A stretch of DNA of 22,848 nt, from NCBI GenBank assembly GCA_046497275.1, contig JAWOFX010000093.1:1-22848 (forward strand), in the 5' to 3' direction. Of the stretch, positions 9,042 to 22,272 are shown piece after piece. The translations under genes were made by a program, and so were the position numbers. This DNA is from Promethearchaeia archaeon. GTDB taxonomy: Archaea; Asgardarchaeota; Lokiarchaeia; Sigyniarchaeales; SOKP01. The notes under the pieces were generated by a model, which was given only the letters and a program-made list of their open reading frames with translations, did no database searches and was not told where the DNA came from. The first letter of the stretch is position 1. Every line of letters begins with the position of its first letter.

Positions 9042-10634
9042 TTATTCGGATTCTTTTGATCCTTTCGCGTTGATGATTCTATCAACCCGGAGGATTAATC
9101 GAGCTAATTCACTTCCAGATTCAACGATGTGTTTGATAAGAACAGAAGGTTCAACTAAGCCGTGTTCATAATTATTCTGAATTGTATCGGTAATCGTATC
9201 AATACCTACCCATTTATCTTCAGGAGTCTTATGCGCTGCCCTCAGTTCTGTCATACGTTCAATCTCGTCTAATCCTGCATTTCTGATTAAAGTTCTTGGG
9301 ATTTCTTCTAATGCTGTTGCAAAAGCTTGAACTGCGAGTTGTTCTTTTCCGCCGATTTCAGAGGCGTAAGTTCTTAATCTTTTAGCGATTTCCACCCATG
9401 CAGCTCCACCACCGGCAACAACTGTTTTTGTGTCAATTATTTTTGCTAAAACACTAATAACGTCATGTAAAGCTATTTCTGCAGTATTTAAAATCTTCTC
9501 AAGCCCTCCTTTGAGCAAAATTGCGACAGATCTGGGATTTTCGCAACCAGAAAATAGTGTATAATTGTCATCGCCAATTTTCTCAAATTTCACTTTTTTC
9601 GCAAACCCAAGATTCTCTACTTCTAAATCTTTTAAATCATCAATCAAAGTCGCTCCAGTAGCATTTAAAACAGCTTCAATATCCTTATCCCCGAGGCTTT
9701 TTATGGCAGCAATTCCCTCTCTTCCCAGCATAGAACCAAATTTATCTGAAATGCTTTGAGAGTTTACTACCATATTCACATTAAGCTTTTTGAAATATTC
9801 TAAGAATCCTTCTAAAGTTTTCTTCTCTTGGTCTAAAAACTTTTGTATGTCTTCGGGATTTTTTATTTGAATTTGAGAGTCATATTCACCCTTGGCAATT
9901 TCTAATTTCTTTCGAATTACCGCAATTTTGGCGTCATTTATCACATCAGGCATATTAGAACTTACTTTTTCCTTATCAATGTACACACCATCTATTAACT
10001 CGGACTCCTTCAATGATTTTCCAGGTGCTTTAATAATTTTTATATTATCAATCTGATCAAATAAGGATCCGCCATCATTTCTTTCAGCAACACTTCGAAC
10101 GGCTTTTAAAGCTAACTCAGCGAAATATTCTTTCACTGCAGCGATATCCTTAGAATTCATAGAGGTTATTGCTGCACCTAAAAGAACTTTTTCATCTTCA
10201 GGTGATATCTTTTCTGCGATTTCGTTTAAAATCTTAACTGCTCGATCAGATGCTTGTTTATATCCTTGTGTAATTGGCTTTGGATGGATATCTTGCTCGA
10301 TCAACTCTAAAGCATTTTCTAATAATTTCGCACAAAAGATTACGGCAGACGTGGTTCCATCTCCAACTTCTTTGTCAACCGATTTCGCAAGGTTAACCAT
10401 CATGATAGCGGCAACATTCTCGATATCCAATTGATCTAAGATTTCCGCACCATCATTAGTAATGGTGACATCTCCTAATGAGTCAACGATCATCTTATCC
10501 ATACCTTTTGGACCCATAGTGCTTTTCACAGCCTCAGTTATCGCCATCATCGCTCGAATGTTCTGCGTTCGTGCTTCTCTATCTCTCTTCGTTTCAGTTC
10601 CTTCCCTAAGAACTATTATTGGAACATTTGACAT
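9042..10634 (-). CDS. Thermosome subunit (group II chaperonin, CCT/TCP-1 family)
   Basis: 530 aa; GPKGMDKM, TNDG, GDGTTS, helical protrusion (IQIKNPEDIQKFLDQE), LHD, AGGGA, VEP...I motifs. The paralog type cannot be assigned by eye. Confidence 0.95.
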   Translation of the reverse strand: MSNVPIIVLREGTETKRDREARTQNIRAMMAITEAVKSTMGPKGMDKMIVDSLGDVTITNDGAEILDQLDIENVAAIMMVNLAKSVDKEVGDGTTSAVIFCAKLLENALELIEQDIHPKPITQGYKQASDRAVKILNEIAEKISPEDEKVLLGAAITSMNSKDIAAVKEYFAELALKAVRSVAERNDGGSLFDQIDNIKIIKAPGKSLKESELIDGVYIDKEKVSSNMPDVINDAKIAVIRKKLEIAKGEYDSQIQIKNPEDIQKFLDQEKKTLEGFLEYFKKLNVNMVVNSQSISDKFGSMLGREGIAAIKSLGDKDIEAVLNATGATLIDDLKDLEVENLGFAKKVKFEKIGDDNYTLFSGCENPRSVAILLKGGLEKILNTAEIALHDVISVLAKIIDTKTVVAGGGAAWVEIAKRLRTYASEIGGKEQLAVQAFATALEEIPRTLIRNAGLDEIERMTELRAAHKTPEDKWVGIDTITDTIQNNYEHGLVEPSVLIKHIVESGSELARLILRVDRIINAKGSKESE

Positions 10635-10763
10635 ATTGTATCACTTTTTTGATATTTAGTTATATTAATTAGTATTGAATAATAATTTTGGATTTTTAAA
10701 AAAATTTTTGATATGGAGATCATTTTTAAATAAATAATTTTAAGAATTGTGGAAAAAATTACT

Positions 10764-11291
10764 TCATTGCTCATTAATATAAATTCTTGGATAATAAATG
10801 ATATCTGGATTATTATTGAAATCTCGTTGCGAAACAAATTGAAATTTTCCAAGATCAGCATTCTTTTGTAAAGCAATTTGAGATGCACAATACCAATTAT
10901 AATATTCATTTGGGGGCGTGAATATTAGAATTGTCTTATTTGGTCTTTTATTTTTCATATCCTTTCCGAGTGATTTTGCGAGTGCCATATCTTTTGCGAC
11001 CTGGCCTGTAAGAATTATGTTCGAATAAAGATCCTCTTGTATTTCCTCATCGCAATACTCAATAGTCGATATAATTAATTTAGAAAGTGAGGATGGCATA
11101 ACTTTTCTATTTAATCTATTTGGTTCAATTAAAATATTGATATCTTTAAATTTTTGTACTTCCCTTCCTGCGAGTAATTCTGACATAACTGCGTGTGACA
11201 ACTTATATCCCATATAATATGGTACGAATCGAGTGGATTTATAACCAATATCCACTACAATTCCCGCATTTTTGTTTGAGTTTAACAACAC
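10764..11291 (-). CDS. Actin-related protein, C-terminal part (frame actually open up to nt 11348)
   Basis: [26 protein letters not shown]..LAGRE matches actin [48 protein letters not shown] matches CDIDIRKDLYANNVMSG. IFTPP..W matches IIAPPE..VW. Confidence 0.85.
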   Translation of the reverse strand: [175 protein letters not shown]

Positions 11292-11311
11292 CGATTTCGT
11301 TGCTTCTATGA

Positions 11312-11701
11312 TTACAACAGCTTTGAAGTTAAATTTATGAAAAAAAAACTATATAAACGTTTAATCTGCGGTTTGGGTTGTAACACCCCGTTTAAAAGGA
11401 TAAGTGAATAATTCTTGAGAACATTAAGAAGGATGGATAATTTATCCTCAAAAAGAATACTGAAAAAAGAAAACATATCTTCCCATCTTATACTCATAAT
11501 ATCCCATTTATATTCTATCATTGGTTTAGGGCTATAGAGTTCGTTTAGAGCCTCTCTACAAATAAAAATACGACTCTTATCATTAGATTTTCCGATAAGT
11601 GATCTCGCCGAAATTTTGGGCTTTTCTTTACTCGCTCGCCCCGCTTTAATATTATAGCTTCCTAAATCAATGATAAGAATATTATTAGTCGGGTTATTCA
11701 A
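11312..11701 (-). CDS. Actin-related protein, N-terminal part (frameshifts near 11340-11348)
   Basis: TTG start; IIDLGSYNIKAG matches actin phosphate-1 loop VCDNGSGLVKAG; RWEDM matches NWDDM. Similarity ends at YSFFF and the last 8 residues are out of frame. Confidence 0.85.
   Translation of the reverse strand: MNNPTNNILIIDLGSYNIKAGRASKEKPKISARSLIGKSNDKSRIFICREALNELYSPKPMIEYKWDIMSIRWEDMFSFFSILFEDKLSILLNVLKNYSLILLNGVLQPKPQIKRLYSFFFINLTSKLL
11340..11348 (-). other. T9 homopolymer at the -1 frameshift junction of the actin-related gene
   Basis: Minus strand TAT AGT TTT TTT TTC ATA. Adding one T gives [36 protein letters not shown], collinear with actin [35 protein letters not shown]. Confidence 0.8.
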
Positions 11702-11935: not shown

Positions 11936-12421
11936 TTAGGTATCTTCTTTAAGACTATCTTTATTTAAAATTATATCACTTTCGTTCTTAAATTCTTTCA
12001 ATACCATATTTGAGACTGTTCTTGTGACGCTTTCCTTCTCATTTAATTCCCGTATAAAATCATGGACATCATCAGATTCTCTGAACCGACATATGAGTGC
12101 AGCAGATTGTTCGCCAGTAGTATGGAAGATTGAACACACTTCTGGTCGATCCCTAATTTCATTTAATATTTCTTCAGTATGCTTACCATTTATTTGCATA
12201 CGTATCAGGAAGGTAAGCTTATAGCCCAATTTAGTGTTATTCAGTCGAATCGTGTAACCTTCTATAATTTTATTGTCTTTTAATTTGGCAATTCTATTAT
12301 GGATGGTTCCAATTGATATTCCTAATTTATCTTGGATTTCTCTGTAAGATGTTCGAGCATTTTCCTGTAATATTCGAATGATGTTACGATCGATTCTATC
12401 AATATCTTCTTTTGTCATCAA
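11936..12421 (-). CDS. Lrp/AsnC family transcriptional regulator
   Basis: IDRIDRNIIRILQENARTSYREIQDKLGISIGTIHNRIAKLKDNKIIEGY HTH, plus RAM domain (HTTGE). The real start is probably ATG 12418. Confidence 0.95.
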   Translation of the reverse strand: MMTKEDIDRIDRNIIRILQENARTSYREIQDKLGISIGTIHNRIAKLKDNKIIEGYTIRLNNTKLGYKLTFLIRMQINGKHTEEILNEIRDRPEVCSIFHTTGEQSAALICRFRESDDVHDFIRELNEKESVTRTVSNMVLKEFKNESDIILNKDSLKEDT

Positions 12422-12668: not shown

Positions 12669-13337
12669 ATGACGGTAATGAATCATTTTATCAACAAATC
12701 GATCAGTGAAAATATAGGATTTACTGTTAGTGGTGTTGGGTTTTTTTTAGACAATATAAATATTGAGGAAGAGTCTAAAGAAAAGATACGAAAGATCTTG
12801 GAGGAGACAAAGAGATTACCCGCAGCATTAAGAGGGTATCATGGGGGGTATATCGGGGGACTATATGATCATAGTCTATTAGTCACAAATTTTGCATATC
12901 AGATTTGGAACCTCCCGAGTTTTCTTGAAGGATTTTTACCGTTTCTAAGAAATCAAGGTGTGAAAATATCGAGCGGATATCATAAAATGAACTTATCTAA
13001 GATACTCCAGACAGCACTTAGTCATGATTTCGGGAAAATTCCGTATTATGGATATAAAAGAAATTTACAAAACCGTAGGATCAACACCACACGCAGTTTA
13101 GTTGAAACTGTTTCTTCAGAGATTAAAGAAAAGTTTGACCTTTATGGCAAAGATTCTCATGTAGATCAGTGTATTGCTGTGCTGAAAAAGTACCATCTCC
13201 CATTTGATGACGAGATATCTCTGGGGATCATATTTCATCATGGTAGATGGGCGAAATATCGTCCCTTTCGATCAAATAAATTAAGTGAATTAATTCACAT
13301 CGCAGATATGATAGCAAGTCATTATTATAAGATTTGA
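12669..13337 (+). CDS. HD-domain phosphohydrolase (YhaM/TraI_2-like HD module, no OB fold)
   Basis: PAA..YHGGYIGGLYDHSL, ALSHDFGKI, IIFHHG and HIAD give the complete H...HD...HH...D set. Confidence 0.85.
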   Translation: MTVMNHFINKSISENIGFTVSGVGFFLDNINIEEESKEKIRKILEETKRLPAALRGYHGGYIGGLYDHSLLVTNFAYQIWNLPSFLEGFLPFLRNQGVKISSGYHKMNLSKILQTALSHDFGKIPYYGYKRNLQNRRINTTRSLVETVSSEIKEKFDLYGKDSHVDQCIAVLKKYHLPFDDEISLGIIFHHGRWAKYRPFRSNKLSELIHIADMIASHYYKI

Positions 13338-14293: not shown

Positions 14294-14692
14294 TTAATCT
14301 TTTTCTTCAAAATTTAACGAAATAGAATTAATACAATATCTTTTCCCTGTTGGCCTCGGACCATCGTCAAATACGTGACCAAGATGCCCTTGACATTTAC
14401 TACATAACACTTCAGTTCGATGCATACCGTGAGATGAATCCTCCTTTTTCTCTACATTTTCATCATTTATTGGCTCATAAAAGCTGGGCCACCCAGTGCC
14501 AGAGTGGAATTTGGTTTCGGAACTAAATAATGGATTACCGCAAGCCGCACATCTATAAACTCCTTTCTTTTTATTGTCAACATATTTTCCCGTGAAAGGT
14601 CTTTCAGTTCCTTTCTCACGTAGTACATAGTATTGATCTTCAGATAATTCCTCTCGCCATTCTTTATCAGTTTTTTCAATTTTTGGTTCCAT
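14294..14692 (-). CDS. msrB: Peptide-methionine (R)-S-oxide reductase
   Basis: [16 protein letters not shown] zinc ligands, [21 protein letters not shown]. Confidence 0.97.
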
Positions 14693-15319: not shown

Positions 15320-16453
15320 ATGGGAAATGAAGATAAACTATTCGTGGATCCATGGAGCTCAAGTAATATTTTAGAAGAAGATTACCTCCGATTAATAGAA
15401 GAGTTTGGTATTGAAACTTTAACTGATTTAATGCGAGAAAGATTTCGAGATAACAAATTTTTAAGAAGAAAGGTAATTTTTGGACACCGAGATCTAGGTC
15501 TAATCTATAAAGCAATGGAACAAAAAAAAGAATGGGCTGTAATGTCAGGAATAAAACCATCAGGTCCATTTCATTTAGGAACAATGACAACTGCTCTGGA
15601 AATCATTGAATTCCAGAAAATGGGTGCAAATGCATACTATGCTATCGCAGATATAGAGAGTTGGGAGGATAATGGGATTTCCTATCAGGAAGCTGAAGAG
15701 AGTGCAATCGATAATGTTGCTGATTTATTAGCATTGGGATTAGATCCAGATAATACATATTTTTGGCGACAATCAAAAGAAGAGATTGTGAAAGATGTAT
15801 GTTTTAAGGTAAGCCGACTTGTAACTCAAAATATGTTAAATGCAATATATGGAGAAAAAACATTCGGATTATATTTGTCAGCATTAATTCAAGTTGGAGA
15901 TATCCTCTTGCCACAAGTCAAAAATGGAGCTCAGCCAACAATTGTACCCGTAGGAATTGATCAAGATCCGCATATAAGACTAACTAGGGATTTAACTAGA
16001 AGATACTACAAAGAGAAAAAAGTTGATGGTAAGATCGTACAAGAGGAATTTTTCTTGCCAGGAGCGACATATCATAAGTTACTACCTGGCTTAGACGGTT
16101 CCGATAAAATGTCTAAACGAAACCCAAATAGTTATTTTACTTTTAATGAACCTCTTGAATCTATTGAGAAGAAGATTAGAGGTGCTTTAACTGGGGGTAG
16201 AGAAAATAAAAAAATGCAACAAGAACTTGGTGGTGAGCCCCAAAAATGTATGATATATAAGATTCTGATGTATCTTTTCGAGGAAGATGATGAAGTTCTT
16301 GCTCAAGAGTTTGAACAATGTGTAAAAGGAGAACTACTATGTGGCGAGCATAAGCAAACTTGTGTTGAACGGGTTATAAAATTCATCAAAGACCATCGTA
16401 AGAAAAAAGAAAAAAAAATAGATCAAGCCAGAAAAATTCTTGATTTAGAATAA
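15320..16453 (+). CDS. trpS: Tryptophan--tRNA ligase (archaeal type)
   Basis: VDPW, HIGH-like PFHLG, VPVGIDQDPH, KMSK, ALTGG, CGEHK. Confidence 0.95.
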   Translation: MGNEDKLFVDPWSSSNILEEDYLRLIEEFGIETLTDLMRERFRDNKFLRRKVIFGHRDLGLIYKAMEQKKEWAVMSGIKPSGPFHLGTMTTALEIIEFQKMGANAYYAIADIESWEDNGISYQEAEESAIDNVADLLALGLDPDNTYFWRQSKEEIVKDVCFKVSRLVTQNMLNAIYGEKTFGLYLSALIQVGDILLPQVKNGAQPTIVPVGIDQDPHIRLTRDLTRRYYKEKKVDGKIVQEEFFLPGATYHKLLPGLDGSDKMSKRNPNSYFTFNEPLESIEKKIRGALTGGRENKKMQQELGGEPQKCMIYKILMYLFEEDDEVLAQEFEQCVKGELLCGEHKQTCVERVIKFIKDHRKKKEKKIDQARKILDLE

Positions 16454-21243: not shown

Positions 21244-22272
21244 CTATTGCTTATAGCATTTTTTATATTTATTTATTTGCTCTAAAATACTCAATGGGAG
21301 ACTCTTCTCATCTGAATATTTAAGAGTTAATATTTTAGAAAGAACAAGTAATTCTTTTTGATTCAATCCCTCAATATTACTCCACCCTTTAGTTCTTGCC
21401 TCGATACAGATATAATTTTCTATCTCACGTTTTTTATAACATTTTTTATCCTTACATTTTTCACAATTTTTCGGGATATAATATACATTACCGTTTCTTA
21501 AAAAGATAGAAAAAGTTCCAAAATTTTTATTATATATTTTAATCCATTCGGGTCTTATTTCTTCATAATCGATTTTTAATTTGTCAAGATACTGCCTTAA
21601 AGTCTCTACATCAATTCGACAGCTAGTAACAGAGGATTCGGTAGGTTCATAATAATCATGACAGTCGTATTTAATGGTTTTATCACCTATTAAATTTTCT
21701 AGAGAAATAAAACCTATGATAAAATGATCATTGTATTGATCATATTTTATTTTTCTTAGAAATAATGAACTAATTTGGCCGAAGATCTCCTTAGCGTTCG
21801 AAAATCTTTCTATTTTTAATTTCTCTTCAGAAATAATTTTTTCAAAATCCTCTGAAGTAAAATACGCTTGCTTTATTTCTTCTTCTGTCTTATTATCCAA
21901 AATGACGCAGAAAATAACTGTTATAATAGGAATTCTTGTCTTGAGCTCTTGTAGATATTGTAATATTTGCTCTATACAATCCTCAGAGATTAATACAATA
22001 ACGGCTTCAGAACCATTATAAAAAGTGCTCCTCAAAAATGCTTTCTCTTGCGAACAATTAATATTCCACAGGAAGAATTCAAAATTTTGGTTCTGAGTGA
22101 GTAAATCAACTTTTGATATATTGACTCCTATATTATTCTTATTTTCCATAGAAAGAGAGCTGGTGCTTAAAATATTCTGGAATTCATTTTTAATTTCTTC
22201 TACACCCCCAAGTAGGCAGACTTTTTTTTTAAAATATACCTCTTTTAAATTAGATTTTAGAGAATTCATCAC
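21244..22272 (-). CDS. Degenerate Rab/Ras-like GTPase-fold protein with Cys-rich C-terminal domain
   Basis: KVCLLGG (beta1), IGVNI (switch I-like), FFLWN (G3 position), FYNGSEAVIVL (Rab YYRGA-like). G1 and G3 are non-canonical. C-terminal CEKCKDKKC...C. GGAGG SD at 22282-22286; start probably ATG 22269. Confidence 0.65.
   Translation of the reverse strand: MMNSLKSNLKEVYFKKKVCLLGGVEEIKNEFQNILSTSSLSMENKNNIGVNISKVDLLTQNQNFEFFLWNINCSQEKAFLRSTFYNGSEAVIVLISEDCIEQILQYLQELKTRIPIITVIFCVILDNKTEEEIKQAYFTSEDFEKIISEEKLKIERFSNAKEIFGQISSLFLRKIKYDQYNDHFIIGFISLENLIGDKTIKYDCHDYYEPTESSVTSCRIDVETLRQYLDKLKIDYEEIRPEWIKIYNKNFGTFSIFLRNGNVYYIPKNCEKCKDKKCYKKREIENYICIEARTKGWSNIEGLNQKELLVLSKILTLKYSDEKSLPLSILEQINKYKKCYKQ

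Follow-up and report, generated by a model that had tools for sequence, protein, structure and literature searches.

The DNA analysed here is a stretch of 22,848 nt (the window) from Promethearchaeia archaeon, contig JAWOFX010000093.1 of assembly GCA_046497275.1. The genome is a 3.85-Mb MAG in 188 contigs, with a GC content of 30.4% and a completeness of 98.9%. It comes from an Asgard archaeon of the Lokiarchaeia type, and proteins of its relatives are labelled 'Lokiarchaeota/Promethearchaeota' in their sources. On its minus strand, at positions 10764-11701, the window carries two ORFs which make up one gene of the actin family, here called mini-actin. The gene and its surroundings comprise the following features, given in the direction of transcription:

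11936-12421, minus strand: gene of an Lrp/AsnC-family regulator, the upstream neighbour in the same orientation, syntenic in relatives
11312-11701, minus strand: N-terminal ORF (0 frame) of 129 codons, with a TTG start at 11701 and a TAA stop at 11314-11312
11349-11351, minus strand: TAG closing the -1 frame directly 5′ of the T9 run, read from the sequence
11340-11348, minus strand: T9 homopolymer of exactly nine T, the site of the frame break
10764-11348, minus strand: C-terminal ORF, -1 relative to the N-terminal half, 194 codons and a stop at 10766-10764
10635-10763, minus strand: AT-rich spacer of about 130 nt from the mini-actin stop to the thermosome start
9042-10634, minus strand: group II chaperonin (thermosome) gene, the downstream neighbour in the same orientation (Cpn60_TCP1, E 1.4e-147)

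Comparison with the Pfam Actin profile bore out the proposal of the sequence-only reading of this locus that the two ORFs are the N- and C-terminal halves of one actin-fold gene. The N-terminal half, the counterpart of subdomains 1 and 2 of actin with the phosphate-1 motif IDLGSYNIKAG, matched profile positions 4-89 with its residues 6-89 (E 1e-5, 24.8 bits). The C-terminal half, which corresponds to the remaining actin fold and includes the phosphate-2 motif, matched profile positions 120-180 and 299-383 (E 2.2e-15, 56.6 bits at a cut-off of 27). As the first piece covers positions 4-89 and the second begins at position 120, the two are collinear; one TAG was reported inside the match.

The reading frame is lost at the T9 run, where the codons of the 0 frame are AAA CGT TTA TAT AGT TTT TTT TTC ATA AAT. 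After TTC, eight sense codons follow before the TAA at 11314-11312, and the -1 frame is closed by the TAG at 11351-11349, which leaves a window of about 35 nt for the shift. Two heptamers, U UUU UUU and U UUU UUC, lie in the 0 frame at 11348-11339. Addition of one T, or a -1 slip anywhere in T9, gives a product of 118 + 194 = 312 aa. A T10 version would read AGT TTT TTT TTT CAT (S F F F H); the junction peptide of the restored product is LYSFFFHK and its counterpart in the 0 frame is LYSFFFINLTSK. The restored product aligned without a gap to the closest intact orthologue (...RWYE LFL YDFNF...), and the halves meet on the FFF columns. Beyond the missing T, both halves are clean, with zero extra stops or shifts. 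This anatomy agrees in every point with the earlier description, which had placed the TAG, the end of the 0 frame eight codons past the run and the heptamers correctly, had predicted a collinear product of about 312 aa from one extra T and had called the halves otherwise intact. The two further 9-mers that it had listed as in frame, 16410-16418 and 22222-22230, were also confirmed, both within intact ORFs.

An actin split into two chains was rejected, because no start codon was found for the C-terminal half upstream of the GTG at 11291; beginning there, this half would lose the strand that follows the break.

Two other ORFs of the window, 21244-22272 (minus strand) and 12669-13337 (plus strand), gave no Pfam match at E 1e-5. 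The first of them contains an in-frame A9 run (22222-22230, T9 on the plus strand).

Relationship of mini-actin to actins

A profile of the mini-actin family matched eukaryotic actins of the PDB with an E value of 5.6e-31. Family residues 7-193 align to actin residues 9-198 and residues 189-278 to actin 262-351, so that actin residues ~199-261, about 60 residues that form most of subdomain 4, have no counterpart across the whole family. The four-subdomain layout that characterizes the actin family (PF00022) is therefore incomplete, while membership of the family is evident from a match to the profile that is significant and collinear over the whole protein. Both the phosphate-1 and the phosphate-2 loop are retained, and D12, G14, G21, G147 and G153 hardly vary when the family is aligned with actins. 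For structure prediction, the intact 315-aa orthologue P0004, which is 57% identical to the protein of the window, was modelled in place of the latter. An alignment of 73 rows gave a model with a pLDDT of 91.4 and TM scores to actin of 0.79-0.82, normalised to the query; a model from a 6-row alignment (pLDDT 55.6) was discarded. According to the alignments and this model, the gene is a shortened actin paralogue lacking most of subdomain 4. Mini-actin thus resembles eukaryotic actin, Asgard lokiactin and the actin-related proteins (PF00022) in profile match, superposition (TM ~0.8) and phosphate-binding motifs. It differs from actins in its length (~312-320 aa in the family, not ~375), in its identity to them of 18-25% and in being very rare.

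Elsewhere in the genome there are five more actin-family genes, all of them intact (C156:92430-93542, C84:44117-45223, C172:136827-137909, C169:9099-10037 and C180:16325-17407). Two of these reach 425-444 bits against Pfam Actin, and one lies within an open frame of 511 aa.

Reproducibility of the T9 run

Homopolymers are the classic sites of indel errors, and an assembly error had been considered at least as likely an origin of the break as any biological one. In this case the true genome would contain T10, with one T dropped in base-calling or in the consensus. We therefore looked for the run in other assemblies and for its counterparts throughout the genome. A second MAG at NCBI, GCA_964385245.1, encodes the identical 129-aa N-terminal half followed by T9; its 23.5-kb contig differs from the window by one mismatch in 6 kb, at window position 14537 and thus outside mini-actin. 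In SRR31818008 and SRR14492185, Logan contigs match at 100% identity over ~990 bp each and likewise contain T9. In SRR31818007, a 2792-bp Logan contig shows matching gene calls of 129 + 163 + 530 aa with the same spacing; for this copy T9 was deduced from the identical gene calls, and for the four others it was read in the DNA. The run length is hence T9 in all five recoverable copies, and no length polymorphism was seen among them, although minority variants stay hidden in consensus contigs. The wide gap between the accession numbers of the two SRR series suggests separate submissions. Pattern scans that required exact flanks and allowed 7-12 bases between them at the run found no other variant, T10 or else, in genome or metagenome contig collections, and a look-up of a 175-aa variant of the C-terminal half (P0007) gave no record.

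The whole genome contains 534 A/T runs of nine and about 200 longer ones, and ~376 A/T runs of at least nine lie in frame within open frames of at least 200 codons. A census of frame breaks was taken at A/T runs, in which a break was scored when a long frame ended just past the run and another long frame began at it. The rates at long A/T runs were about the same as those at random positions. On inspection, the T9 of mini-actin was the only demonstrably broken single gene among A/T runs of at least nine; the remaining cases were ends and starts of adjacent genes, plus two transposase copies. A platform with systematic homopolymer compression is excluded, because frame breaks are not enriched at long runs in this genome. 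The assemblies may still have reads in common or a single site of origin, which leaves some room for a shared artefact. Yet T9 was recovered by different assemblers and from three separate runs of two accession series, in a genome that is not prone to homopolymer errors. We conclude that an assembly error is very unlikely as the source of T9, and that a T10 genome misread throughout has a very slim chance of being the explanation. The two ORFs, annotated as 'hypothetical', are accordingly pieces of a single broken gene, in which the break is real and not a fault of assembly. Mini-actin should therefore be left out of the organism's functional actin repertoire unless its expression is shown.

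The two transposase copies of the census (G000:C39:13617-13624 and G000:C150:6058-6065) are ISL3/MULE-like DDE elements and 94% identical. Both change frame exactly at a common A8 run (CTT AAA AAA AAC) with identical flanks, which makes the run a candidate for a conserved slippage or frameshift site of the insertion sequence. It illustrates what a conserved slippery site looks like, and the T9 of mini-actin differs from it in being unconserved.

Orthologues and turnover of the module

The closest orthologue, found in a genome of the same genus (G002), is one continuous ORF of 315 codons with 57% identity and stands in the same context of AsnC regulator, actin and thermosome. The N-terminal half is 54-57% identical to residues 2-124 of the intact orthologue and the C-terminal half 58% identical to the G002 protein. 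More distant orthologues are continuous as well, with 317 aa in G006 and 320 aa in G037. At the position of the break, which falls into a T-rich stretch coding for a hydrophobic helix (about actin residues 120-127), G002 reads GAG TTA TTT TTA TAT, G006 reads GAA TCT TTT TTT TCT (T8, in frame), G037 reads GCA TTG TTC TCA and the copy in GCA_014730295.1 reads CTA TTT CTT TGT. The frameshift is absent from all four diverged orthologues, three of which are continuous and one of which carries nonsense mutations only, and none of the four has a T9 or T10 run. The sequence-only reading had named just this finding, continuous orthologues without a conserved run, as one that would turn the break into an assembly error or a strain-specific mutation.

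Because synonymous sites are saturated at amino-acid identities of 57% or less, relative rates were compared in place of dN/dS. Identity to two outgroup orthologues is 40 and 37% for the mini-actin of the window, compared with 38 and 33% for the intact G002 gene. By this measure the mini-actin lineage is not accelerated relative to the G002 gene, and the protein looks functional up to the break. Signs of relaxed constraint, that is, more lesions or faster change, are missing, which would fit a very recent event.

The family is found in four of the 161 genomes of the class, the genome of the window included, and in two of the six other genomes of the genus. Among 1.84 billion cluster representatives there were about three mini-actin clusters and a few fragments, followed by ordinary actins from E ~1e-19. 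In G004, a genome of the same genus (97% complete), the AsnC and thermosome genes are adjacent with a gap of ~235 nt and neither mini-actin nor the profilin paralogue described below between them (L043, G004:C3:5941-9378). This adjacency identifies the module as an indel at this spot. The orthologue in GCA_014730295.1 (WJIN01000362.1, L029:2401-3339) is a single frame interrupted by three in-frame stops, TGA, TAA and TGA, at places where G002 has CGA, CAA and CGG; two of them are one C-to-T change away from the G002 codons CGA and CAA. Its neighbours, the AsnC, profilin-like and thermosome genes, are intact. Going by these codons, this copy is an independently inactivated pseudogene. Stop-codon reassignment in this relative was rejected, as the stops mix TGA with TAA and the neighbouring genes end normally. 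Judged by its distribution and by this second inactivated copy, the mini-actin family is dispensable.

In the AsnC-regulator orthologue of a further genome (L045, G001:C364:434-877), one in-frame TAA lies within the match.

Between mini-actin and the thermosome gene, G002 (L010:2193-2573) and GCA_014730295.1 (L029:3447-3827) have a gene of ~126 aa that encodes a profilin paralogue. It shows 34% identity to a profilin-like paralogue in the genome of the window (G000:C112:15610-15999), and a joint profile of the two matches the Asgard profilin structures 5YED/5YEE, 5ZZB, 5ZZA and 7PBH. The gene is absent from the window, where the corresponding place is taken up by ~130 nt (10635-10763). The arrangement suggests a dedicated pair of mini-actin and profilin; the data are compatible with a loss in the lineage of the window and with a gain in the two others, and do not polarise the direction. 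Since mini-actin is present, absent or inactivated across close relatives, and stands beside a profilin paralogue of its own in two of them, part of the Asgard cytoskeletal gene set is accessory and subject to fast turnover.

Origin of the break and comparison with known systems

Taken together, the T9 break probably goes back to a real slippage deletion from T10 to T9 that turned an accessory mini-actin into a young pseudogene or a gene in the process of being lost. The ancestral run would have consisted of the codons AGT TTT TTT TTT, from which replication slippage removed a single T, and the deletion would then have reached fixation in a nearly clonal population, of which several samples exist. 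Translation as encoded should stop after 129 residues, leaving the 194 C-terminal codons without a nearby start of their own, and a full-length protein of 312 aa would arise only through unprogrammed slippage of RNA polymerase or of the ribosome on U9. Such incidental slippage could supply a little full-length protein. The disruption recurs in every recoverable copy, stands against intact orthologues and affects a dispensable family, as is the case in pseudogenes; from these observations we infer the T10 ancestor and the loss of function. The five intact actin paralogues elsewhere in the genome also speak for this explanation. The clean halves and the lack of acceleration are a counterpoint to it, as are the known proneness of U9 runs to slippage and the expression of S. 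solfataricus fucA1 despite a strain-specific -1 break at a homopolymer (PMC8211752). The sampled copies are all near-identical, however, so the event must be recent, with no time for a dead gene to gather more damage. For the same reason, clean halves cannot tell a young pseudogene apart from a gene sustained by slippage.

The sequence-only reading had suggested recoding or phase variation as a means of controlling the protein. Neither is supported, given that the orthologues are continuous without a conserved run and that all five recoverable copies have T9; of that interpretation, the anatomy of the locus stands, and the weight given to assembly error and to recoding or phase variation does not. 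This leaves a species-specific mutation, most likely one that made a young pseudogene. With regard to the site itself, the overlap holds slippery heptamers of the type X XXY YYZ in 0-frame register (U UUU UUU and U UUU UUC), and the frame junction has an A/T run of the length, about nine or more, that is typical of slippage-dependent genes. Folding of the downstream RNA was not stronger than that of shuffled sequence (z-scores of +0.71 over 100 nt and -0.52 over 60 nt), which agrees with the remark of the sequence-only reading that no strong stimulatory hairpin is visible there, and direct reading of the 20-30 nt upstream of T9 revealed no SD-like (GGAGG-like) element. No frameshift or slippery site is conserved among the diverged orthologues. 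From these features, programmed recoding of mini-actin is not supported.

The gene might nevertheless still be in use, if transcriptional slippage from U9 to U10, -1 ribosomal frameshifting or both were to provide a useful full-length mini-actin and the break were tolerated or even selected for low expression, in the manner of fucA1 of S. solfataricus or of poly(A) frameshifts in insect endosymbionts. In many prokaryotes slippage begins to show at a run length of nine (PMC1088944), the heptamers are in the correct register of a shift window that stays open for ~35 nt, and either mechanism would yield one and the same gap-free 312-aa product from halves that are otherwise intact in a lineage without acceleration. 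In archaea there is a precedent with an efficiency of 5-10% (PMC8211752). Against this, none of the diverged relatives shares the break, the site has neither a downstream structure nor an SD-like element upstream, and the ~376 in-frame runs of at least nine in long ORFs imply that slippage at such runs is inefficient or tolerated in this organism; moreover, the family has been lost or broken repeatedly. On balance, we regard continued use of the gene as unlikely. The more specific idea that the break is tolerated since slippage on U9/T9 delivers a low, possibly regulated, dose of a mini-actin without subdomain 4 is quite unlikely. Phase variation would require the run to toggle between T9 (off) and T10 (on) by replication slippage and thereby switch expression heritably. 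Long homopolymers are indeed hypermutable, the off and on states are one unit apart, and Logan contigs and the consensus of a MAG conceal minority variants. However, the recoverable copies from two accession series all have T9 and none has T10, the 7-12-base pattern scans of genome and metagenome collections brought up no other variant, and the run is not conserved in the orthologues, which makes switching at this locus highly improbable. If slippage did rescue the gene, mini-actin would be the first cytoskeletal gene of an Asgard archaeon to depend on recoding and would join fucA1 as only the second cellular -1 case demonstrated in archaea; no finding points that way.

The fucA1 gene (alpha-L-fucosidase) of Saccharolobus solfataricus P2 has a strain-specific break, and -1 frameshifting at A-AAA-AAT gives it an expression of 5-10% (PMC8211752). 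Like mini-actin, it is an archaeal gene in two ORFs with a -1 relation and an overlap of ~35-40 nt that includes a homopolymeric heptamer, and most of its relatives are full length (PMC8211752). At the fucA1 site there are, in addition, rare codons on the flanks and a putative stem-loop, and experiments have demonstrated the full-length product (PMC8211752). Mini-actin, in contrast, has no such structure, is known from sequence alone and belongs to a family that is being lost in relatives.

As a mechanism, slippage at T9 is plausible. Selection against slippage becomes apparent at A/T runs of nine in many prokaryotes (PMC1088944), and AT-rich endosymbionts possess frameshifted genes that are rescued by slippage (PMC5009743). 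The poly(A) tracts of Buchnera and Blochmannia, the A9 run of T. thermophilus dnaX and Shigella mxiE share with mini-actin an A/T run of nine, an AT-rich genome (30.4% GC here) and a deficit of one base (PMC1088944, PMC5009743). In those cases, however, species or strains have the out-of-frame run in common and the genes remain under selection, whereas both the run and the break of mini-actin are absent from diverged orthologues.

A parallel to a young pseudogene of mini-actin is provided by the ordinary homopolymer-indel pseudogenes of prokaryotes. Here as there, one unit has been deleted from a coding homopolymer of a non-essential, patchily distributed paralogue, of which a relative's copy has been inactivated independently. 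Nothing essential differs between the two. The T9 break is a further instance of a well-known type of event, and what sets it apart is mostly the gene that it struck, a shortened actin paralogue of an Asgard archaeon.
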